From Patellaria atrata CBS 101060 (Eukaryota), in contig MU006096.1 of the NCBI GenBank assembly GCA_010093705.1, forward strand, positions 1,138,004 through 1,202,003: 64,000 bases of DNA, read 5' to 3'. The notes under the pieces were generated by a model. It was not told the DNA's origin. It was given only the letters and a program-made list of their open reading frames with translations, and did not search any database. A program made the position numbers and the translations under genes. Positions 10,031 through 64,000 of the stretch are shown in pieces. Position 1 is the first letter of the stretch. The number at the start of each line of letters is the position of its first letter.

Positions 10031-10112
10031 ATGGTTTGGGGGGTTGGGATGGCGTTTTCTTTTTCTGGAGGGGGGTGTATTGGTGCATTGGTGTTTTTGA
10101 TTCTTTGTGGGG

Positions 10113-10136
10113 TTTTTTTTTTTTTTTTTTTTTTTT
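10113..10136. repeat. Poly-T tract (T24) in the YND1 3' region
   Basis: Direct reading of the sequence. Confidence 0.95.
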
Positions 10137-21896: not shown

Positions 21897-24249
21897 CGTG
21901 ACTGAAAATCAATAAAGAATGAAATGGTCTTCAAGGACCTGAAGAAGACAATGAAAATAATAGATGTTGCTTGATGATCCTGAATTTAGTAAGTCATAGT
22001 TAGTAAGGAGCGGTAGGTGATCGTGTGCCCTCCTAGGAGGGGTCTTGCGCAAAAAAAAAAAAAAAAGATGAACCCAGGGAGGGGGTCCGAATAGCCAAGC
22101 AATTTCAGGACAGGCCCATCATACCAGAAAATATGAAGACTAGGCTGCTGAGTGGAAGATAGAGAATTCGGAAAGGGGTAACAAAGAAACCCAAGCAACT
22201 CCGCGATTCTACCACATGGACGAAGCTGGGGCCTATCCTGCCGTTGAGGCACTCATATTAGCAGCCATGGCGCAGACTGGACACAACTTGAAGTGTTGTG
22301 TATCTTGGGTACCATAGATTCGAACAGAAGTCCCCATGGCGTTGCTGAACATGATGGCCAAAGCGGTGGTGGGAGGATTAGGCTCCGAAGTTCAAGAGCC
22401 ATTAAACCGGTAATGAACTGGTAATGTACGTGAAAATCTCACTACATCCCTTTTGCAAAAATTACGAACTTATCGTTACACTTACCCCTGACAAGAAAAG
22501 TAGAAGACGGGGTTTTCCGGCGGAGACTCCGATGCTCGGCAAGGATTGATTCGTGGATGACTGTTGCTCGTGTGTCCGTAAGCCAAATGTGGATTAGGCT
22601 AAGCTGTGGCTTGTTAAAACTTTACCTCAACGTCCAGACTCCTGTTATGCCCTGTAGCTAAAGCCAACGATGGAACCAGGCCCAACCAGCAAAAAGTACA
22701 GAGCGAGGACTGCGTGGCAGCTCTAACCCGTTTGTACAAAATCATTCCACAACACTGATACAAATTCCAAAAGAACATGTTTGAAATTCCGATTTCAGCG
22801 AGTATCCCCATCGACTCCGTTGGTAGGTGCACCGATACTTTCAGTACAACTGATCGGCTAGGAAACGGGAAGCACACCCTGCTTCAATTACAGTAACATA
22901 CGGGCGGGCTTCCGCATCCGTAAGAATCTGATAGGTAGAATTCCGTCAATTCTATTCTAAGGCTCACAATCCCTTTCTGGTCGTATTTATTGATGCTTCC
23001 ATCAGATGCTTATCCAGATTACTGAGTGGCTGCTGTTGGCTCAGGACAGCTCAAACGCATAATTGGAAGATACTTTGCGATCAACATTTTTAACGACAGT
23101 ATGTTGTCAGTTTTTCGCGCCTACAATGTGATGTTACTTTGAACATACAGTACGGTACACTTCATGGCCCGCTCCGTGGTGTCTAATTTGTGAACTGTAG
23201 TGCACAAAGCGCCTAAGGTTCCACACGGAGATCAATCTTTGAACCACATACCAAGCTCAAATTGACGCCGTAGGTCGCCAAGGATCGACCTTTGGGTTCA
23301 TCTGTCATCGCAAGATTAAGATGAGCAATCGTAAGGATGCGTGGAGGTGCAACGACGGCGTGAAGCTAAGAGAACGTTGTCCAACTTGCATCCAGAATTG
23401 CGCCCCTACATTCGGAACATATTTTATACGTTGAAACTGACAGCTGATGACTTTGCAGACTTTATCTGAGCTTAATTGTGCAAACAATGCTTTCCAACGA
23501 GATTCAAAATATTGACTGCTCTTATGGACTATCAAAAAGGCGTAATATTTGCATAGCCCTAGAAGAACTGTTGAATGCAGTGGTACCCCTCTGTCCTATC
23601 AATAATAATTGACGTATCATTTTTGTGGATACTTTGTTCTTCGTCTTGTCTGCGCATCTCCCGTACTGTCACGTTTCTTTCGCGTACCTGCATGAGGGCT
23701 TATGCCTGTTCAGGAGAAGTGCTTTCTTTGCAAAACTGATCTTCGCGCCGGGACTACTTCAGCTCGCCAAATGTTAAGCCCTATCCCGCTCAATAAGGAA
23801 GAACGTCTTGTGTCTTTATGAATAGTGGCTATCCACTAACTTTCTGACTGCCCACACTCTTAACCTAATCGAGCACTATCATCAAACTTGCTCTCACAGC
23901 GGATCAGTACCCATGTCATTCGATTTACACCGGCAATATTGACATGGATTAAGTGAGCCACAGTACCAACGCAGAGATTGCTATCATGCCTCCGAGTCAA
24001 GTTCGGTGTGATAATCATCCTTTTAGGAATAACATTTTGGCAAGGACGTGGGCGATCATACACCTTGTCATCCCGCTGAGCCTCAAGGCAATAATGAAGA
24101 GTCTTTTAAAGAGGACTGTCATCCCTCATCTACTAAGTTTTTTCTCCTTGTTACTCAGTTCACTCGCTTACTTGGAGTCAACCTTTGTTTGCAATTGCAA
24201 CTTAATTCATCCTTATTAGGATAGTCACTCGTTTTTCAGCTTTGCAAAC

Positions 24250-27191: not shown

Positions 27192-28659
27192 ATGATGGGC
27201 CATGCGATCATGAGACAGAATACTTTCATGCGTGGAGGTGGTGCTGCATTTCTTTTCGTGCTCATATTCCTATGGATTCTCACCTTTAAGAGACCGTCGA
27301 TACCTGCTGTTCCGGGCAGTTGGCAACCTTCGAGTGCTCAATTAGAGGTTGCTCAGTCTCCCGTTGTTCAAGATGGAATTAAGAGAGCTTCTCCCCCATC
27401 AAATCTGGGATCGTATCCCAAGATCACCTTGACGGAGCCGGCAGATGATAATATTAGGGATATTCAAAATTCCACACTTGGCGTACGTATTGCAAAAAGA
27501 GAATTGACAAGATCGTGCAGTCTGACACCGTTGTACAGTTTCAGAAGATATTCATTCTATCCATGCCAAATCGAAGTGACAAAAGAGACGCACTCACATT
27601 ATCGGCCTACCTAACCGGTTTGGATGTCGAGTTCATCGACGGCGTGAATGGCTCCCTTGTGTCCGAAAAGGCGTACCCACAGGTAACGTAACGTCCAACT
27701 ACCGTTTCAAACCCCAAGCCTAACAACTCCACCAGCCCTGGAAACAAGACGAGCCCGCAGGCACCATCGGCTGCTGGCGTGGCCACATGGAGATTTACCA
27801 GAAAATGGTCCGCGAGAAGATCTCCACCGCCATGATCATGGAAGACGACGTGGACTGGGACGTCATGATCAAAGCGCAAATGACCGAGTTCGCGCGAGGG
27901 ACCCGTTACCTGCAAAAATCCGTCTCGCCCACGCACTCCCCCTACGGCGACGGCTGGGACATCCTCTCAACCGGCCACTGCGGCATCTGGAACAAAGTCC
28001 GCGAAGACCAAGACTACTGGGTCTCGGAGAACGATCCCACAGTTGTCGTTCCCATCCAGCGCGAATGGTGGCGCAAACCAAACCTCACTCCCCCAGCGCT
28101 GGCCGGGGACCGCTCCCGCGTCGTCATGAGCCCGTACCAACTGTCATGTCTGGCCTCGTACGCGGTCTCACTTCGCGGCGCCGCGCGCATCATCTACGAC
28201 CAGGCCATCCTGCCCAACGCGCAGGGCATCGACTCTGGCCTCGGCGCCATCTGCAAGCGCCACGAGTACGGCTTCAACTCCTGTCTCGCGGCGTACCCCA
28301 TGATCACGGGCGTGCATCGCCCTGCCGGCGATATGACCAGAGAGTCGGACCGTAAGACCCTGCGTACCGGCCGCGTCAGGGAGAAGGCCCAGTCGGATAA
28401 CCTCATGTTTCCTGTTCGTATGAATTTGGGCTCATTGCTGCTGGGCGACACGGTGGTTAAAGCGCAGTGGCCCGATCACGCTATGGTTCAGGAGCTTGAT
28501 ACGAGGACTTATGAGCTTCCGAGGGGGAGGGGCGTGTTTGTTAGGGGGGATGAGTATATTAAGGATGTCCCTGAGGAGGAACAGAAGGTCTTGACTGATA
28601 CAGCTCAAGTGGAGAAGAAGGCGGTAACTGAGACCGAGGAGAAGAAGGCGGAGGAGTAA
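27192..28659 (+). CDS. Glycosyltransferase family 25, type II membrane protein, 3 exons
   Basis: IQNSTLG|FQKIFILSMPNRSDKRD, FIDGVNG, GTIGCWRGHM, IMEDDVDWD, SPYGDGWDILSTGHC, YAVSLRGA. Introns at about 27483-27538 and 27683-27735. Confidence 0.9.
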
Positions 28660-45591: not shown

Positions 45592-48500
45592 TTAATCCCA
45601 GTCTCCATCAGCATCAGCATCCACACTTCCAGTGCTACTCTTTCTTCCTGGTGTAGTTTTGGCCTTAGATGGCCTTCCCCTCTTCGCCTTCTTTGGTGTA
45701 TTGGTTGCTGACATAGACCCTTTCCTCTTCCTGCCTCTGCCACCACCACTAGCCATGACGCTTCCATTCGCGCCCTCGTTCTCGCTCGGGGTTTCGTAAC
45801 CGGCTGCTGCACGAGCAAGTTCCGCGTCTTCCCCCTCTGAGTCGATCTTGAGTTCGTTGTCTACGGAAAGAAGTTCTGCAAACGCTCTACACTGCGCGAT
45901 CTGGGTATCCTGACTCTCCAAGGAAGCGAGAAGATTGGTTACCTTGTCCATATACTTATCACCCTTGATAAATGGAACTTTGGTAGGCGCCTTGTTGAGA
46001 TCTTTGACTGCGGGTTTGGCTTTACCATCTTTCTGCTTGTGCAAACCCCATAGGGTTCGAAGGAAAGAGCGGGTTTCCCAGACCATGGATAACGTAACAG
46101 CGGCTACAGTGAGTTGGTAAAGCCGTTCAGGTGGGACGCGAATGTTGGTTGGAATTGGGGTGGGAACTGGTTCCGCGACTGGCTCGGTAACTGGCTTGAC
46201 ATCGTCCTGCTCAGATTTGACTGGCGTCGGGACACTGTTTTCGGCTATGAAGATATTTTCCTGCGGAGCAACATTAATTTGTTCGACCTCAAGTCGTACA
46301 CCAAGAATTTCAAGTTCAATGGCGTGAGCAACTGGAGCACCCGTGGTTGTGACAAGTTTCTCCATGCAGGATATGAGATAGAGTAACTCGTCAGTACGGG
46401 CATATTCAAAGAAGGCTAGATTCTCAAGACAGAATCGGGAGAAAACTGTGTGCGTTGGTGGTGATCCAGTGACGTCGAGTTTCCCAAGCTCGAAATCTGC
46501 TCGAGAGCACATATTTGCTAGGAACCTCTTACGGACCTTCCCATTACCGGTCTTAAGTACGTCGAACAAGCGCCGAAGCTTTGAAGCTAGAGGTTGGCCA
46601 ATGGCACCTTGAGCGTTACCTGTAACTTCCTTCTGATATTTGAATGCATCAGAAACAGCCTTCATATACTCCTTCTCAAACATGCTCTCGTGCTTATGAT
46701 GCAAAATACGGTGCTCCGCAAAGGCAATGTCTGAGATAAGAGTATTCGGTGATGTTTCCAAGGCTACAAGCGCCGGTCCACACTCCTTAGGATGCATGAG
46801 TCCTTGCCGATTGATACTTGCAATGACTTCTGTGGCAGTTAAAGCCAGGTCGTCCGTAGAGGCCAACGCGATCTCCAAGATAAATGGAAGAAATGTCTGC
46901 GCAATACCGATTGCAACGCCGTCATTGTCAGTCCCTGCATAAGAAGCAGCGAAACGCGCTGAGCCTGTAGCGGCCCCTTCGCCAACCGCAATCTCAGCAC
47001 CACTTTCCGATCGTTTCTCTTCCAAAGAGAAGAAATTTCGAAAGCCAGATATGATGATGCGCTGCAACTGTTGTTCTCGGTTATGGAAGACTAACTTGAA
47101 AGCTGTTGAAACGTCTTCACGGATGTATTGTCGAGGTGAAGTAATAGAGATTTGACCGATACTCTCTAGTGCTGCCTGTCGAAGGGGAAGGGCATACTTC
47201 TGACGGGTCCAAACGCATAGTTCATCGACGATAAGACCAGAAACCAAATCTCCTTTCCATGACGGAAACTGACCTTTGAAATCCTTGATATTGTTCTCGA
47301 AATTACAGTTCTTGCCTAAGCATCCAGCAATAACGATGTATTTTTCTAGTCGCTTAATAACAGTGTTATCCTGAAGATCGGCCGTCTTCTGTTTCTGGAT
47401 TCCGGCCAGGACAGACTTCATCAGAGCCACTGGACGGCTCAAGTCCGATAGGGCACAACTGATCGTCCATATACAAGCTGCAACTTCGTCAAGTTCCAAT
47501 CTAGAAGGACATTTGGAAACGCTTGTCATTAGTTTTCCAAGCACATTCTTGAGGAACGGCTCTTCGAATGTCGTCAGAGACTCCAACGTCAAGCGAATAA
47601 TGACAGCCACTGATCGGAACATAACGAAATCGTCCATGGTAGCGAGATGCCCGAGGAACGGTTCTAGTAGCGTCAGCTGTTTAGCGGTAAACAACTTTGG
47701 GCGTGCCTTTGCGAATATGGTCAAAGTCTTAGCGATGCTATTCTGCGGAACATTCCCCGGTAGATCCCTGTTATCAACAATGCCGTCGAACATAGTTGTA
47801 ACAAGTGCTAAGCAGACTTGGAAGTTGCTGGTAGCATTTTTACTGTTGTTAGAAAGAACACTCTGCAGGAGAGACTCTAAAACCTGCAAGGCGCTATCCC
47901 CATGCTCAACGGTTTCAACGATGAGTACAACTTGCTTTCTGAGTGCGAGTTTGGACTGTACTGGATCTGACTGGTTTGAAGACGGCCCGTAGAAGGGAGC
48001 GAACCAGATCTCTTCGAACGTTTGTCGCGCAAGTTCGGAAATACTCTCATCGTGATCAGTGATTCTCTGAAGCAAATAGTGAGCAATGGTTGTCTTGACC
48101 TCTTTACCGTTGTTGCGTAGGTATATGTCTTTCAGCATCTTCATAGCACGCTTGCGAACATTGATACCAGCATCCATGGTACGCCTGCAGATCAATTTAT
48201 ACATTTCGGTTTCCAAAGAGGGTTTCAAAGTCAAGCACTTCCCTAGAAGATCCAATGCCGATGAACGAACTAAAGACGAGCCATCATTCAAACCTTTCAT
48301 GATGCCGGTTCTGACGAAGCCCTTGCTGACCAGAGAGGCCTCCTTATCTAGGAGTTGATCCAAGCTCTTCAAACTACGACTCCTAATGTTCGGGTATTCA
48401 CTGTCCATTGATTTGTTCAAATAGCCGAGAATATGGTCGAGACTTTTAGCAAAAGGCATACTCAAAACTGTGAGAGAAGATGCGAATCGAGCCAAACTTA

Positions 48501-51500
48501 AATTGACGGATTCAAACTCGCTTTGAACCGATTAGAAAAGATTTTCAAATTGATATTGGGGAACTTACTATTCTTGATGAAGCCATTCTGGGTTCAAGAT
48601 AGCATTTCTTAAATTGATGCATAGAGTCTTGAACGATCGCTTCAGCACACCCTCCTCGTCTTCAGTCTTTTGAAAAGAATTCCATAAACTCCAGGACCAC
48701 TGGTTAAGGAGGTAGCCTCGCGCTGTAAGTGATTGAGCATCGTTCGGCGCGTTTGCGTGCAAATGCTGAATAATAACCCGATATGGACCGTTGAATTCGA
48801 GAACATCATTGTTGCTCGCTTGTTCCGAAAGCACATCCATTGCTAACTGTGCTAATCGAGCAGCTAGCTCTGATTGACTGGAATCAATCGATTTTGCGTG
48901 ACTTTCCATATGTGCGCGAATATCTAAGATACCTGAACCTATAAGACCCATCAGATCTAGAGCCATATTTTTTGCTTGCACTGTGCTCTTCTCGTCACTG
49001 ATAAGCTGGAGCATATTCTGGACCAAGACTCTTAGAAGGATTTCAGCAGCAGGCCAATCCGTAGAACTAAGAACATTCAAGAAGTCTTCGACGAAGATAT
49101 CAAGAAGATTCCGGTAAGGCTGATCACCACTCTTGGTTGACGTCAATGCTCGTTTGACCATAAACCCAATCAGGTACCGGGCCTGGCGAGACATTTCATT
49201 GTAGAGTGGTTCCGCAACCTCTTTAAGCGCCTGAACAGCTCTATCCATATCCATGTTGTCGGCTTCATCAGGGTCGATAAGAGCAAATGGTTTTATTGAT
49301 GAGCGAACGTCGTCATCAGAAGACTCCTCATCAGAGTTTTCACTGTCATTCAGATGGAATTGCTTGTGACCGCCTTTCTTTTTACTTTCCTTTGCAGACC
49401 TTGTTGCACTAGTCTGGATTAGACGCATCAAAAGAGCAGAAACAAGCTGAATCGGTTTCCCCTCTGCTAATTTGTATTGTCGTGCACTTTGTCGGGTGAC
49501 CGGAAGCTTTTCCAAGGACGTGAGGATCTCGTCAATGATAAATTTCCTTTGTCCTTCATGTTTCGAAAATATCTTCCCTATGACATCCATAGCTGCGCGT
49601 CTTGCGAGCTCGTATTTTTGAATGCCCAAGGCAGACTCCTTCTCATTCGGTGCATTTTCTACAAATATTAAGTCTTTGGCTAAAAACTCTACAGATGTGA
49701 TCACGCTTTCTGAGACTTCGACCTTGACTAACAGATCCCCAAGCAACTTTAGAACCTTTGAACATACGTGAAGCAAGTCAGAGAGTGGCTTTTTGTTATC
49801 AGAGCGTAGCTTGAACAGTTCAGCTTCCGATCCAGAACTTCGACCCTCGACGGTAGGAATGAGACAGGTGTCCAGGACGTGTTTCAAAGCGGCAATGATG
49901 CTTTGAACGAGTTCTTCCGAGTAAAGTTGTTTCTCCTCTCGGCCAGCAGATAGAATTCTAAGTAGAATTTTACACGCAACGAGTCCGTTTTTCGATGCTG
50001 CAAGGCGTTGTATCCATTCTTCAACGTCACCTTCACTCCAGCCCTCTCCTGGATAGAGAGAATATTTTTCGACTGAACGCGCAGAGACTTCCAGAAGTTT
50101 TTGTAACCGGCCTAGGTCTTCTGCAGGGACATCTCCAAACCGGGACAAGGAAATTACTTTTTGAATAGCACTGTCCAGTCTACTAGTTATCGGAGGAGCT
50201 AAAAGAGGAATCTCTGTGTCTTCGACTGTGGTGGTAATAAAGTAATTGGAGTCGACCGTCCCAATATTCTCAGATGTGTCTGGTTGGAGCTGATCCTCCG
50301 CTAGGAAGACCTCATCAATGACGTTCTGCAGGGCATACAGTGCCGTATCTGCCTTTTCACGCTGATCGATTCTCATAGCAAGGGCGTCCGCTTCCTCCTG
50401 AGTCTCATCCCGTTTACGCTTCCGTGAGGGCGCATCGACTCCCGCCCGGACCCTGGTATCAACATCAGGAAACTCCAGATACTCGGTGTGCTGCGAGGAT
50501 GGGGGTAAAGCTGGAATCAGCACCGCTGGTTTTCCGGGTCCTGTTGGGACGGGCGTAGCTTTCGAAGATGGTAAAGTTGGGGTGGGTACCACTGAGGAGG
50601 GTAATGCCAGGGAAGGTACCGCTGAGGAGGGTAATGCCAGGGAAGGTACCGCTGAGGAGGGTAATGCCAGGGAAGGTACCGCTGAGGAGGGTAATGCCGG
50701 GGAAGGTACCGCTGGGGAAGGTACTACCGGAGAAGGTAGTTCCTGCCTGTTCTGATTGAACGCATGTTGATTTGAGATCTTGACCTTGACTTGAGGTGAT
50801 CCGCGCGCCTGCGTTCGCTGTAGTGTCTCAGTCTTTTGGATTCGCTTCCGTTTCGGCGACTCGTCGGGAGTCGGGTCTATATAAATCAGTCTCCATGATA
50901 GTCTTTGAACAGCACCTGGATATAGCATACATCTGTATAGAATATCCGTTGATTGTAACACCATATTGGCAAAGCTGCCTAACTTGGGTTGTACAGAGGT
51001 GCGAGACGTATGGCCATTTACCGGGGGGTTGGTATTTGTTTCGGATGGAGGTGTACGTAGGGGCTGTGGTTTCTTGAAAACGCTTAACAGCAATTAGCAA
51101 GGTAGGCCCCAATTGAAAATGGAGCTTACAATTGTGTTAGGTCATCGGCCTGAAGAAGCTTTTTAAGGTCTTGAAGAGTCTTCTGAAGACGAGCAGACGT
51201 GTTGTTCAAATTAGAAGCTTCTTGGTCGAGAGCACTCAAGAGTCGCTGTGATCTTTGACGCTCTTGAGGGGTGTTGATCAGCGATGGAGACGCTGCTGGT
51301 CCAGCTGAAGGGAAAGGGATAATATCTGTCCAAATCAACTCAGCGAAAGTCAAGAATATCGTAGTAGAGTTATGCTCATACCAGTGTTGAATGGAACGAT
51401 GGAAGTGAGTGGGGAGTACTCCAACGCATCGTCTACTGTAGGTGGGCGAAACGGCAATGACATCGCATTATCGGGGGCCCAAGCCCCATGTTTTCCGTTT

Positions 51501-56308: not shown

Positions 56309-57790
56309 ATGAGTGACTTGGACAAGTACGTTACATCGTCCTCCGGCTGCATTTTATATCTGGTCCTAACATTTGAATTGAAGGGCGATAGCCCAGCTGC
56401 GCGCCTGTAGACCTATCCCGGAGAATCAAGTCAAAGAGCTATGTCATAAAGCACGGGAGCTGCTACTCGAGGAGGGAAATGTGGTGGGCGTCAATGCTCC
56501 TGTGACGGTAAGGGTATCCCCTCGATAGTCTGGGGATTGAGCTAATTCTCATCCTTTGGGATAGATTTGTGGGGACATACACGGGCAATTTCATGATCTA
56601 ATGGAGCTGTTTCGTGTTGGTGGCGATGTACCAGATACAAACTATCTCTTCATGGGTATGGATACCATCTGTCCTGCAACATCAAATGTTAATCATAATC
56701 AGGTGATTTTGTTGATAGAGGCTTCTACTCCCTCGAATCTTTTCTTCTCCTTCTTTGCTTGAAAGTACGGTATCCAGATCGCATAACACTAATTCGAGGA
56801 AACCACGAATCAAGACAGATAACAACAGTTTATGGCTTCTATGACGAGTGCTTACGGAAGTACGGAAGCGCGAATGTGTGGAGGCATGAACTAGAGTCTT
56901 CCTTTTCAAGGGATAAAACAAGCTGACCAGGAGGCAGACATTGCTGTGAAGTATTCGATTATTTAGCACTTGGTGCACTTGTTACCGGGGCATCAAAGAA
57001 CCTAGAATCCTCAGAAACTTCCTACACCGATGCAGGAACGCAGAGTAGTATTGAAGACCAAGATATCGAGATCGAAATCCTCAACTCAAACAGCGAAGTC
57101 ATCAACCGATTCCCCCGCAGCAGCAGAGACTCCCAACTGCCCCCCAAATCCTCACCCTTAAGTTCTCCCATCCTAGACACTCCGTCACGCATTGGTCCCG
57201 TAGGCACCGGTGCCACATCCTCCTCCGGTGGCTCTCGGTCTAACGACGGTGGCGCCGTCCTTTGCGTCCACGGTGGTCTTAGCCCCCTAATCGACACCAT
57301 CGACAAAATTCGCCTGCTCGACCGCAAACAAGAAGTTCCACACGAGGGCGCGATGTGCGACCTCCTCTGGTCCGACCCCGACGAGATCGACGGCTGGGGT
57401 CTCTCCCCCCGCGGCGCCGGCTTCCTCTTCGGCAGCGACATCGTCAAGTGCTTCAACCACAAGAACGACCTCTCGCTCATCGCACGCGCGCATCAGCTCG
57501 TCATGGAGGGATTCAAGGAGATGTTCGATAACTCCATCGTCACAGTGTGGAGTGCGCCGAACTACTGCTACCGCTGCGGAAACGTGGCGGCCATCCTAGA
57601 ACTTGCGGAGGATGGAAGCAATGGCGGGTATATTCCTAGAAGCAATGGTGATCTAGGACGGAAACAAGAGATGGAGAGGGATTTGAGGAAGAGGGATCCG
57701 CCAGGAAGGAGGTATAGGGTCTTTGAAGCTGCGCCGCAGGATTCGAGAGGTATGCCGGCGAAGAAGCCAGTCGCGGATTATTTCTTGTAG
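56309..57790 (+). CDS. PPH3: Ser/Thr protein phosphatase 4 catalytic subunit, 5 exons
   Basis: [57 protein letters not shown]-terminal KKPVADYFL. Confidence 0.88.
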
Positions 57791-58193
57791 AAAGTCACTT
57801 TTGGAAAGCTTGGAATTCTTGGGTCCTGAAGCACCGGGAGTTTTGATGTATTGTGAGGTCGCAAAATACCCGGGAGTCCTGATGGTAGATTATTAGAGCT
57901 CAACGGTATGTATATGAATTATGTACGCCTTTATAGCTGAGTGCTAGTTCCTTTTTCCCTATCTCTTCATAGTCTCTGATATGGTGCCCCTAAAGTGAAA
58001 AAAAAGTTACACTCTACACTCCTACCGCGTAAGCTGCTTTCCAGTAGTTCGTCTCACTCTTTCCTCTCAACATCGCATTGCAACGAACAGACACTGTGAA
58101 CGCCGTAAAAAAAAAAACAAGACATAATTTCAAAATCAATCAGAGCAAAACGAAGTCAAAAGCAAAATTAAGGGGTAAAAGATTCCAAGCCAC

Positions 58194-58372
58194 AAAACAA
58201 TTAGGCCCGTAGGCCTCCTTGAACCCCCGGACGGGTTTTTGCTGCCGCTGCTCCATTGACCTGAGGTTTACCGATAAACCCGCCCGGAGGGAGTTTCGAA
58301 CCTCCGACATTTGCGTTTTTTCAGGAGATATCGCGTAGTCAGATTGCCTGACCGCTCTGCCATTTGGTTAGT
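58194..58372 (-). ncRNA. Putative RNA polymerase III-transcribed structured RNA (or tRNA-derived SINE-like element); not a canonical tRNA
   Basis: Minus strand: TATA-like TTTATATT (about 58397-58404), A box TGGCAGAGCGGT (58362-58351), B box GGTTCGAAAC (58302-58293), 15-bp stem, cUACGg hairpin, then T4 and further T runs. Confidence 0.6.
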
Positions 58373-59257
58373 TGATGTTTGGATTTCTGGTTGGGGAATA
58401 TAAAGGGGAGGTACGGGAGCGGGAGCTGGAGGGTATGTCACGTGGGGGGTTGTGAATTGTGATAGGATTTGGGAAGGAAGTGAGAGAGTGTATAGGATTT
58501 GAATAGTGGACGGGTAGGGATATCCGTTTGAATATTTTCCTTGTTATGGTTTGAATTGATTACTTTATCTCACTTCTATCACCGTGATTCTATTAGAATC
58601 GGACATGTTTGTCCTACTTCCCGTCGTCGCTATAGCCTAAGATCTTACTCTTGACACCACGCTCTCTTTTTCAACCCCGTCTCTCGTTCATCCACTTTTC
58701 CATCACCTACCGCCTTCCACTCCAAAGCATCCCGCACAGCCACCCATCTCACCAAAGAAGAATGCGTCCTTGGTACTGAACAATACCAAATCCCCGACAC
58801 AGAAATAGCTACTCCTGCATAACGCATCCCCAAAACGACAGATTCGCCTTGGGTGGTTACGGGAGCCGCTTAGGGCATCTGAGCTACGTTATAGGGCTGT
58901 AACGGGGTGAAGTGAAGAAGGCAGCCCTACAATTCACTAGGGTCAATGGAACGGAGTAAGAGACGCGGGAAGGGAGTTCTTGTACCCTTAAGCACGGGGG
59001 TAGGGGCGCTCTGAGGAAGCAGGTCAGAGAAAGATATTGGGACTTATGTCCCTGGTCTGAGGGCGGACATCGTGCAGGAGTTGTTGGGTTAGAGACTTGA
59101 CGAGTATATTGGTGTATGAGGATCCCTAAGGGACGGAGGAAATATGCTATAAGGGGTTTTACTCTCGAAGCTAGACCAATCTCACCACTCTATTTGATGA
59201 CGGTGGGATAATTAGGAAATGTATAAAGACCTTTTACGCCATCTCTATCCAGTCTTT

Positions 59258-59542
59258 ATGTTCCTATACTCAATATGCCCCCTTGTCCTCTCCATCACTG
59301 TTCGATTCTACCCGTATTGCTCTTCTGCACGAACAAGGAGTAAATATCAATAGTACAACGTATGCAACGTACACATCGATCCAGATACTGGTGATCTCCA
59401 TAAGGATCCACCCCGAGACCCGAACGGTGGGGACCTGCACAATAACCGCTTCGCACCACTCTGTCCTGCGATTCGGCAGCCTTGTACCCAAAACCTGACA
59501 TCTCCAACGTCTCGTCAAGTTCCCGGCCGAAACTGCAAGTAA
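59258..59542 (+). other. Possible small secreted Cys-containing peptide gene or pseudogene
   Basis: TATAAA at about 59222 and ATG at 59258 (MFLYSICPLVLSIT...). The 94-codon frame is broken by a single TAG that could instead be the acceptor of a 54-nt intron. Confidence 0.3.
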
Positions 59543-60514
59543 TTGTGTCGAAGGATGAAGTGTTTATTCAGTTATGAGGTCATATTAAGCGCCTGCGCCA
59601 TGCCAAAGGGCGTTAGTGATTACCGCTTTGGGATATCGAAGAGTAGAATGGTAGAGCAGGCCAACTGTATGCAGCACGATTCTTATGAATTGATGCTAAT
59701 TGTGGAATTTGTAGAAGGATTGGGGAGGTGGCGACTCACCAAAGTAGAACTATTATATTGACATTGTAGCACATTATCACTGATCAAGCATGCAAGTTAA
59801 GCTTCCCTTACGATCCTTTAGCGAGGTAAGAATAAGCCGCATGAGCTAATCATAGGGCCTTGTAAATAGATATCCAAACTTCGTCATGCTGAATGTGAAT
59901 TTTGATCATGAAATGCTGGCTTGCCCCTCCAGGGCTTCAAAGCTTACTCTCTTGTACTATACACTACTAGTATACACGAACTTTATCCTTATCTTAAACA
60001 CTGACATCCCCGAAGCTTATCACAAACACCCAAGGTATTCGATGCGAGGTAGCATGAAGGATCTATGGAATGGTTGCTCAACTAGAGGACTTCAAACACC
60101 CAAAGCTTTTATAGGTGCAGAGCGGGAAACATAATTGGAGATATCTTAGTCTATGGTGCGGTTTTGGCCCCCAATGGCGGAGCCGTGCATGTCAACGGTA
60201 TGCCGGCTGCATACCCGCAGTTGCCGAAACGGGAGCCGATGGGGTCCAAAATGTCAAAGATAACCTTTCAGCAAGAGGGAACTTTCAGAAGCGTTGGACT
60301 AGTTTGGGTATGCATTCTAGTATTTTTGGTAACACATTCGATCGGATTTGAGGAGATGATAAGTTGCTATTGGTAACTGGTTTCACGCCTTCAACAGCCT
60401 GTTACTGGGTCCTAAGCCGACTCGTTGTATTGTCGCTGCGTTCAGCGCAGCTGTTATAATTCGAAATGCTACCTTCGGCGCTGATTTATCTCTTTCCAAC
60501 CTCTTGGGTTCGCA

Positions 60515-61602
60515 TTACTGATGTTGCAAAGCATACTGATACACTCCCAACAAACCATCCTCCATACTAGTCTTCGCCCGCCAATTGAATTGCTCAAACG
60601 CTTTCGTCGCATCTCCAATCGAATTCTTATAGACTTCTTTAGTAATTCTCGCTGGGTCGAGAGGATATCTTCCTTCGGTCAATGTCTGATACGGTTCCCA
60701 GAATAGCTTAGGGTCGCGGAATTCAGGTCGATTCCCCATCTTCGCATGTCCCCGCATGATGTCGAAGATGGCCGGCGCAGAGATACCGCTTCCTGAACAG
60801 GCGTTGAAGACCTCGCCATAGTAGCTTTGGGAAGAACGGAGCATCCCGACAAGCAGACGGATTAGGTCATCTACGTGAACGTAGTCACGACGGACATTCG
60901 GATCGTCGTTATACATAATCGGGGTGCGATGATTGGAAAACTCCCTTGCGAGGTACGATGTAAAAGGAGGTGATGTACGTTTGAAATCTTGATGTGGACC
61001 GTAACAACTGGGTTCAGGTCAGCAACCGTTGGCTCACTATATCTGAACCGTTATGCTTACTTGAAGAACCTAACAATCATAGTTTCAAGGCCATAGTTAA
61101 CACTATAAGCTTTGCATAACTGCTCAGCTGCGTGTTTTGTCATGGAATACACTAAATCCGGCATGACTTCGTCACTCTCCTTAAACGAGGCCGATTTAGT
61201 ATTCTCATAGATAGCAGAAGTAGAGGAAAATATGATGCGCTTGACACCGGCAAGTCGAGCAGCTTCAAGCACGTTCCCTGTTCCCGAGACATTGACGTCG
61301 TAAGCTAACTGAGGGTCGCTTTGGCAAACTGGAAGCGCTGCGCACCCAGCAAAATGATATACGACATCAACATCTTTCATCAAGTTGCGCAGTTCCTCAA
61401 GAGGTGCGCGGATGTCCTTAACTACTAATCGACCAAAGGTTTTACCTTCAATCACCAGGTTATCTAGTTGCCCAGAGGACATGTCATCCATAAGAATCAC
61501 CTCATAATCGTTGGAGGATAGGTAGTAGCCCAACTGGGATCCGACAAATCCGGCACCGCCAGTGATGAGGATCTTCGACCTTTTGGGTGTGGGAGGATGC
61601 AT
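60515..61602 (-). CDS. NAD-dependent nucleotide-sugar epimerase/dehydratase (extended SDR), bacterial-like, 2 exons
   Basis: ILITGGAGFVGS, NVSGTGNVLEAAR, FSSTSAIY, YSMTK (YxxxK), RFFN|CYGP, RDYVHVDD. Intron at about 61009-61060. Confidence 0.92.
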
Positions 61603-64000
61603 TTTATTATAGCGTGAAATGGAAAGTGTTGATAGTGACTCTCAACCATAGTGATGAGGAGTTGCCGTTGCTTTGTATCCATAATACAGTTCATATCCCT
61701 TACTTCCTGACAGTCACATTCCAGCATTGTTCCAATATCTTCAGTAAGGACGACACCTACGGAATGAATAAATAAGATAAGAGTAAAAGGACTATATAGA
61801 AGTGATGGTAAAATCTCCTCTCAGGGGAAATTAATAGAGATGGAGTCTGGGCAATACTCAACTTTTAGCCCCCAACTGTACACAGTACAAGAACAACTGC
61901 CGGTCTGAAAGCGAACAGCATATTTTCCCGGGTAATGAGACCGCGGGAGGGGTCGTTTGGCCCGCGAACCTAAATGATAACGGATAGCATTTCGCTGTCG
62001 TGCCAGCCGTGACGTGGGACGCCACAGATTCTGAGCCCTAAGAGTTCTCCTTTCTGTCTCCCCAGAAGTCCTTGAGTATGATTGAGGTTCAACCAACTGG
62101 AATACCTGAACAGAGCCATCCCTCAATTGGGAGCTGTTGGTGGCTAAATGCTTGTCATATCCATTGGTAGAGAGAAGAGCTTTCACAAAGATCACTAAAT
62201 GAGGCTTGTGCTGTTCATGCGGGGTTTGTTAATTCAGGACCTTCTCGGATACACCGCAGAAAAGGGAGATCAGGTGTTCCTGTGGGCTCCGCATATGGAC
62301 AGTGCAGCCGTGGTGTTGGTCTAAATCGGGGAGAAGGGATGGACCGCTCGCACTATTGACGGGAGCGTGGAGGTTCCACAGCACGTCAACTACCTGGAAA
62401 TAGGTTTTGTAGGTAAGAGGGATAGTATACAACAGCCCTCAACGACTAGAGATCTCGGAGAGTCAGGATAAGTGTGCCGACGCAAGTTGATGAATGGTCG
62501 AAAGCTTATGTATCTCGGCTTGGAGCCCGGCGTGATGTTGAATCAGTGTCAGTAGCCGGGCGCTTATGCACATCTTACTCTTGGAAGCACGATAGACGGT
62601 ATATCTAGCCTATCATCGCTCGTCTGGAAGCCAGTATGTGGTCAAAAGCCCTGTGATGTTTCTCAGACGCGTTTGATGACCCTCGCAACCTTCCCATTCC
62701 TAGAGACTCCTGCAGAAAACACTTATCTTCCCCGGTTCGTTTGCCGCAATAGCAGAAAAAGCAAGATGCGATAGTAGTAAAGTGTTCCCGTCGCCACAGA
62801 CAGTGAGCAGAGAAAACGTCTTGTCGGGTCACAATGTGACGGAGTTGAAGATGAAAAATTGCAACCGATTGTAAGCGGTTACAGTTGCGTTGGAGTTGCT
62901 GAAGTTGCTGAGCAGTCCGTGCCAACCTCGCTAAGGGGTGATAAAAGCGCGATATTGCGTTTATCATCACCGCACAACCAATACTGCTGCGATTGGCCAT
63001 GTGGCCGGCGGTACATGAAGCATCGTTCTGCATATCCATCTGCAGTAGTCACAATAGCACTGACCCATATGTTCCCAAAGCTGATCGTTGAACTATCGGA
63101 CAAACAACTGCCCAACACTCTTTGACCAGTTTCCTCACACAAATTTTCTTCTAAGACAGAGGGCAGAATATTACCCCCTTGAAATTCGGACTCGGACTCC
63201 TGATTCTTCCTATGCCTTGCAACTTGAAAAGCTGTCCCGCCAATAGACGGGGCGCTAATCCTCATTCCCTCCATAGGCCCGTTGTCATGCGTTTCACACC
63301 TAGAGATAATGTCAATAGACGTTACCGTCACCACGGTTGAAGCCACTGCTATTTTGCCACGTCTAACTCTCTATTGGTGTCCTCTCTGCAGTATCCATGT
63401 ATGTACAGTACAGCCATTCTCCGTAATCAAGTCCTTGGTGAATATGACAGCTCAACTGTCTTTAGGAATCGAATTGCTCCAGGCAGGAAGTTCCGGTCCC
63501 AGACCTCATTGTGACCCAACATGTAATTCCGGTACTTCCTCATTAACCCAAGTCTGATTAATTCAAAACAATCTCAGGGCATCGCCCGTGTCATGCAAAT
63601 TCAAATGTTGCCACCCTTGTCCTCCGCCTCTTTGATGGTAAAAATATCATGCGCCGCCCGCTAATTGAAACCACCCACCCAGTATGTCGGAACTCGTTGT
63701 ATTCACAATAGACCAGTTTTGCGCATCAATTATACAATTAATAATTCGGTCTGTGGTATCATTGAGGGCTGGCCGAGATGTCCCAGAGCCTAAATCGATG
63801 CTTCGTAGATTGGACCTGCGATAGAAGAGAGGAGGAACTTCTGGTCCGGTTGCGTTGATAATCTTCTCTCGGAATGCTGAAAGAGAAGGGAGGGCGATGA
63901 AGAGTGGGTTCTAGACCTTCTACGTCCTCGCATTGCTGGGCTATGACGCCTAAATTGAGGGCGCTTTGGACATCCACTCTCCTCATGCCTGTGGGATGAT

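Follow-up and report, generated by a model that had tools for sequence, protein, structure and literature searches.

A short dispersed element with Pol III-type promoter motifs and a hairpin body is probably a SINE-type retroposon copy in a pezizomycotine fungus

The minus strand of a 64-kb stretch of fungal DNA (the window) carries, between 58365 and 58194, a set of promoter-like motifs and hairpins that a sequence-only reading had taken for a single structured RNA gene of no recognised kind, to be explained as a new non-coding RNA, a milRNA precursor or a SINE. The question raised by this locus is whether it is one unique gene or one copy of something that occurs many times in the genome. 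When the sequence was checked, all of the listed minus-strand motifs and hairpins were found to exist, together with the TATA-like element upstream of them; their coordinates are collected in Table 1. The element is ~174 nt long, or ~260 nt if the T-rich stretch on its 3' side is counted, and the sole reading frame that crosses it is a 91-aa stop-to-stop frame without family support.

Table 1. Features of the element and its immediate flanks, in window coordinates
Feature	Position	Strand	Basis or remark
Element as present in the window	58192..58365	minus	~174 nt, measured from immediately 5' of the A box to where other copies cease to match
TATA-like motif TTTATATT	58404-58397	minus	sequence
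A box-like motif TGGCAGAGCGG	58352..58362	minus	sequence; the region has a homologue in another copy's loose end at 58315
5' hairpin GUCAG-GCAAU-CUGAC	58338..58352	minus	MFE fold; pair probability 0.99
UCUCCUGAA	58328-58320	minus	sequence
T-arm-like palindrome GGAG-GUUCGAAA-CUCC, with the B box inside (58302-58293)	58290..58305	minus	unique in the window
Body hairpin	58224..58290	minus	15-bp stem and 37-nt apical region
Arms of the 15-bp stem	58290-58276 / 58238-58224	minus	13 Watson-Crick and 2 G-U pairs
Competing hairpin GGUUUA-UCGG-UAAACC	58280-58265	minus	sequence
CAGGUCAAUGGAGCAGC	58263-58247	minus	sequence
UUCAAGGAGG	58223-58214	minus	sequence
3'-terminal hairpin AGGCC-UACG-GGCCU	58203..58216	minus	sequence, MFE fold; pair probability 0.999
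Common 3' end TTGTTTTGT, including T4 at 58197-58194	58192..58200	minus	four other-copy contigs match to 58191-58193
Best-conserved repeated core	58192..58318	minus	from the B-box region through the hairpin body to the terminal hairpin
Stretch rich in T and TTTTG, with T11 (58117-58107) at its end	58107..58191	minus	base composition
Upstream half of a weak candidate target-site duplication, CCCCTTTATATT	58397..58408	minus	overlaps the TATA-like motif
Downstream half of the weak candidate target-site duplication, CCCCTTAATTTT	58164..58175	minus	inside the T-rich flank

The promoter-like head was assessed by counting, over both strands of the 64-kb window, the matches to consensus patterns for an A box and a B box (TRGCNNAGNGG and GGTTCRANNC, separated by 30-70 nt). 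By this pattern count the pair at the locus is the single one in the window, and in first-order Markov simulations such a pair arose in 2 of 300 sequences. The Pol III-like architecture that had been proposed is borne out.

Known RNA families were then compared with the locus. ARAGORN reported 0 tRNA genes in the 64-kb window and a cloverleaf is absent, and no family of Rfam 15 matched anywhere in the window at gathering thresholds. Under permissive filters, applied to sequences of 216 and 801 nt, no Rfam model for tRNA, SRP RNA, 5S, U6 or RNase P/MRP RNA appeared at E<=10. The sub-threshold matches, to CrcZ, dauA, PreQ1 and mir-1788, were junk-level: CrcZ, which had the lowest E value of 0.051, scored 16 bits against a gathering score of 95 bits, and mir-1788, which had the highest at 7.5, scored 11.9 bits against a gathering threshold of 57 bits. 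On the nulls from Rfam and ARAGORN, the readings of the locus as SRP RNA, tRNA, 5S, U6 or RNase P/MRP RNA were rejected. Thus the earlier statements that the locus is not a tRNA and bears no U6, 5S, RNase P/MRP or fungal SRP Alu signature hold, and the echo of SRP helix 8 that had been suggested alongside them is not sustained by the Infernal search, which reported no SRP family at E<=10 on either the 216 or the 801 nt. Derivation of the head from tRNA, 5S or 7SL RNA was likewise not detected by ARAGORN or Rfam, and these searches do not support the label 'tRNA-derived' for it.

Homologues outside the sample were looked for in a metagenome scan and in a scan of prokaryote genome contigs, and neither found any; short strings of the element were not found in published full text. 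The metagenome scan, made with a 20-nt word from the core, returned 1 locus sharing nothing past that word, and since the similarity is confined to those 20 nt the locus was rejected as a chance match. The prokaryote scan, made with the B box and the motif following it, returned at least 121 loci, 30 of which were checked. At 11 of the 30, GGTTCGAA-N3-7-TCCGGGCGG is the 3' end of a bacterial tRNA-Arg (CCG/UCG) gene, and at the remaining 19 there is no tRNA where the pattern matches. These loci were also rejected as homologues of the element, the B box and the bases next to it simply resembling a T-arm followed by the 3' strand of an acceptor stem. As a sequence motif, this T-arm/acceptor-like B box may be taken as a hint, and only a hint, of tRNA-like ancestry.

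Judged by the predicted folding of both strands, minus is the better RNA strand. The minus-strand fold reaches -60.5 kcal/mol (z -2.2), a value equalled by 3 of 200 shuffles, whereas the plus-strand fold reaches -49.9 kcal/mol (z -0.95), equalled by 38 of 200; this difference agrees with the minus-strand RNA that had been proposed. The two imperfections of the 15-bp stem are indeed G-U wobbles on the minus strand only, being A-C on the plus strand, and as DNA the arms are 87% complementary. Pairing in the thermodynamic ensemble is dominated by three helices, with probabilities of 0.81-0.999 for the long stem, 0.99 for the 5' hairpin and 0.999 for the terminal hairpin, and for these three the earlier structural proposal stands. 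It is not favoured for the others that it had drawn: the long-range pairing of UCUCCUGAA with UUCAAGGAGG is disfavoured (p 0.005), requiring a 1-nt bulge and giving a forced fold of -56.5 as compared with -64.2, and the ensemble also disfavours the T-arm-like hairpin (p 0.06) and the competing hairpin GGUUUA-UCGG-UAAACC (p 0.0).

Copy number bears most directly on the question of gene or repeat. Contigs of two sequencing runs from one sample, probably DNA (X1 and X2), were aligned to 56800-59800. Both runs look like genomic DNA from the strain of the window, with a flat depth of ~315-440x and 0 differences over 1.4-1.5 kb of unique flank. The records that aligned to this 3-kb stretch numbered 46 in X1 and 67 in X2. 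The summed contig depth rises from ~319 in the flank to 12,735 over 58214-58314 in X1, and from ~375-437 in the flank to 15,540 over the same interval in X2, corresponding to ~40 copy-equivalents at >=90% likeness over the core, a figure of summed depth rather than a strict copy number. Within the element the unique (single-copy) contigs are interrupted, at 58220 and 58270. At least five other X1 contigs of single-copy depth (303-332x) begin or terminate in the element; those five range in length from 2,378 to 28,243 nt and, over the 62-92 nt that they share with it, differ by 2-6 substitutions and 0-2 gaps. Since X1 contigs of single-copy depth cross from the element into other sequence, the repeat must be a short one, present at different loci. 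Among the pieces listed, the copies diverge by ~4-10% plus indels. A second copy within the 64-kb window was not found.

The ends of the other copies define the repeated unit. Among the pieces listed, those from other copies span 58191/2 to 58318 and stop at 58191-58193, and all of the listed loose ends past 58192/58193 are A-rich on the plus strand, i.e., T-rich 3' of the element. The listed loose ends on the head side are of three kinds, all of them altered homologues of the head of the window copy: in the first, the A-box region is kept and a deletion takes out UCUCCUGAA; in the second, a canonical GGTTCGAATCT B box is preceded by an extra B-box-like segment; and the third is diverged, with the T-stem broken. 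The A-box and B-box regions are therefore also seen in the loose ends of other copies, at the level of motifs. Two diverged copies with loose ends at 58236 differ from the window copy mainly by minus-strand C-to-T changes, which make up 6/7 and 4/6 of their substitutions in ~30 nt of the 3' arm; transitions biased in one direction like this bring to mind cytosine deamination or a RIP-like mutation process.

With ~40 dispersed copy-equivalents, and with heads that are diverged and indel-bearing elsewhere, the reading of the locus as a single unique RNA gene is unsupported; the element is a dispersed repeat. The sequence-only reading had itself named the genomic copy number as a check, with many dispersed copies as the first half of what would speak against a gene and target-site duplications as the second, and many dispersed copies are what the contigs contain. 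Of its three options the last, a SINE, is the one favoured by this dispersed multi-copy state.

The flanks were then inspected for the signature of an insertion. Between 58200 and 58100 the minus strand is 55% T and holds five TTTTG and one T11, a density of five TTTTG per 100 nt that is attained by 2 of 5112 100-nt windows of the stretch. From its composition, the part at 58107..58191 could be either a degenerate T-rich tail belonging to the window copy or T-rich target DNA. The best direct repeat (58408-58397 vs 58175-58164) is identical at 10 of 12 positions, with 9 of 200 shuffles doing equally well, and as a candidate duplication it is awkwardly placed, one half lying 34 nt 5' of the A box, the other in the T-rich flank. 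There are no terminal inverted repeats at the element ends, where the best nearby pair is 15 nt long, 73% complementary and not at 58192; the combination of terminal inverted repeats with short fixed duplications that marks a MITE was not found.

Taken together, these observations indicate that the element is probably a copy of a SINE-type retroposon family in a pezizomycotine fungus. It is short and non-coding (~174 nt), it is present in many copies at different sites (~40 copy-equivalents by summed depth), an A/B box promoter is recognisable at the level of motifs, and its 3' side resembles a simple or homopolymer-rich tail in being T-rich, in the window copy as in all the listed loose ends of other copies. 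What is observed is a short repeat in a dispersed multi-copy state, its motifs and folds, T-rich flanks on the 3' side, and copies that have diverged and acquired indels; Pol III transcription, an RNA intermediate, a LINE partner and a role for the hairpins would follow from them if the assignment is right.

An alternative is that the locus is a working member of a dispersed and functional multi-copy family of Pol III RNA genes, whose 15-bp hairpin might give rise to small RNAs. The 5S rRNA genes, which are dispersed in filamentous fungi, provide a model for such a family. At the locus the A and B boxes are intact, a TATA-like motif lies upstream and T-runs downstream, three helices have pair probabilities of 0.8-1.0 with a minus-strand z of -2.2, and the T-runs just past the unit in other copies look like Pol III terminators; in addition, several of the C-to-T changes in the 3' arm of the two diverged copies would keep a G-U pair, judged from that arm with its partner unseen. 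Against it stand the ~4-10% divergence plus indels among copies and the head-side loose ends that delete or break the proposed helices, and the scans that were run gave neither an Rfam match nor a homologue outside the sample, so that we consider this explanation quite unlikely.

The element might also have spread at the level of DNA, as a MITE-like or other non-autonomous repeat with a preference for A/T-rich targets, in which case the A and B boxes would be fortuitous. The boxes and T-runs, however, occur in the right order, at the right spacing and on the right strand, which is expected by chance in 2/300 cases, the T-richness is confined to one side, and terminal inverted repeats are absent at the family boundary. 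We regard a DNA-level origin as unlikely on these grounds, even though the element is short, dispersed and rich in hairpins, its flanks are A/T-rich in every loose end listed, and a clear retroposon-type duplication was not found. Very improbable, in our judgement, is a fragment of a longer LINE or LTR retrotransposon, for example a 5'-truncated 3' end. The conserved 3' portion at 58192-58318, with its constant 3' end and variable 5' break points, has the appearance of such a fragment, but the head-side loose ends are homologous continuations rather than truncations, to either side of the element the contigs of single-copy depth continue at once into kilobases of other sequence, and there is no longer repeat or second fragment nearby in the window.

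If the element is a SINE copy, its parts can be assigned putative functions. The 5' head would be an internal type-2 Pol III promoter composed of the A and B boxes, in which the tRNA fold has been lost; the body, unrelated to tRNA, would be dominated by the 15-bp hairpin; and the small stable 3' hairpin would be followed by the T-rich tail. Pol III would initiate a few bases 5' of the A box and terminate in the T-runs, and the RNA would be returned to the genome as a copy made in trans by a LINE-encoded reverse transcriptase, for which the 3' hairpin and the tail would probably be the recognition features, in the manner of stringent LINE/SINE pairs. The outcome would be dispersed copies that subsequently decay. 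A bolder form of the SINE assignment, in which a T-tailed Pol III SINE is active in a filamentous ascomycete, the conserved 15-bp hairpin of its body gives rise to milRNA-like small RNAs and some copies serve as regulatory RNA genes, seems to us improbable.

In the window a Ser/Thr phosphatase reading frame (Metallophos; 56927-57790, plus strand) is found ~400 nt from the element, which is downstream of it and antisense to it, in ORF-poor surroundings ahead of an epimerase gene (60515-61641, minus strand). The element puts A-rich sequence on the strand of the phosphatase gene and, speculatively, might affect the 3'-end formation of that gene. Elsewhere in the window, two convergent frames at 27724-28659 (plus) and 30125-29178 (minus) are paralogous, with 42% identity over 308 aa (E 4e-78), and the plus-strand frame has a weak match to glycosyltransferase family 25. 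Because of these paralogous frames, inverted repeats of 100 nt and 59 nt (79-80% complementary) and a GC-richer block occur at 28-30 kb. A tandem repeat at 50534-50738, with a 15/30-nt period and 7 overlapping copies of an 85-nt reference, is contained in a long minus-strand frame without a Pfam match (48568-51093), which is situated directly upstream of a Nipped-B/Scc2-like frame (45592-48531). Intergenic homopolymers of ~T25 and ~A16 are present at 10108-10135 and 22051-22066. The genes of the window are fungal in content, and one fast-evolving protein encoded there finds its closest named relatives mostly in Helotiales, at 33-44% identity. The host is a pezizomycotine ascomycete and may be a Leotiomycete.

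For annotation, the locus is better masked, or annotated as a short interspersed repeat, than entered as a new RNA gene, and the ~40 like loci in the genome would otherwise give the same false lead. A family with a hairpin body and a T-rich tail would be a modest addition to the few, poorly catalogued SINEs of fungi, in which the tail is a mildly unusual feature; it may already be catalogued in Repbase or Dfam, and it could lead to its LINE partner.

Among known systems, SRP (7SL) RNA is loosely suggested by CAGGUC-AAUG-GAGCAGC, after which the element has an A-run and then the long helix's 3' strand, an arrangement that we take to be a loose likeness to SRP helix 8/5. The element differs from SRP RNA in that its apical hairpin is too short, it is multi-copy and no SRP family is matched at E<=10. 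With eukaryotic tRNA genes the element has in common the order of the A and B boxes and the T-loop-like GUUCGAAA, and it departs from them in lacking the cloverleaf, in an A-to-B box spacing of 60 nt, start to start, and in a T-loop of 8 nt.

Closer parallels are found among SINEs. Tails of TTT, T-rich sequence or (GGTTTT)n are described in PMC6007223 for plant Au-like SINEs and AFROSINE and are tied there to RTE-clade LINEs. The element shares with these families, as presented there, a Pol III-promoter head joined to a body and an end that is T-rich rather than poly(A). It ends in TTGTTTTGT and continues into TTTTG-rich DNA, and the other copies have T-runs at that place; the families in question belong to plants and animals, and a text search of PMC6007223 for mention of fungi gave 0 occurrences. 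As for abundance, automated repeat annotation gives SINE shares of 0.07-0.15% in the four genomes tabulated in PMC5118889.

The fungal SINEs listed in PMC5063351 include the tRNA-related MgSINE, Foxy and SINE2-1_BG, as well as AfuSINE2 of Aspergillus fumigatus, which measures 140-493 bp, has degenerate boxes and lacks a cloverleaf. According to the same paper (PMC5063351), families comprise tens to ~160 copies, one element has an extra B' box and insertion occurs in gene-rich regions; of tails, it mentions one that is A/T-rich, and also an (ACT)n end. Relative to the SINEs described there, our element differs in its T-rich tail and in having no detectable tRNA ancestor, and it is likened to them by description rather than by sequence. 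What it has in common with them, as they are described there, is a short, non-coding unit with a 5' A/B box head without a cloverleaf and a body unrelated to tRNA, an extra B-box-like motif in some copies or elements, a low to moderate copy number and insertion in a gene-rich region.
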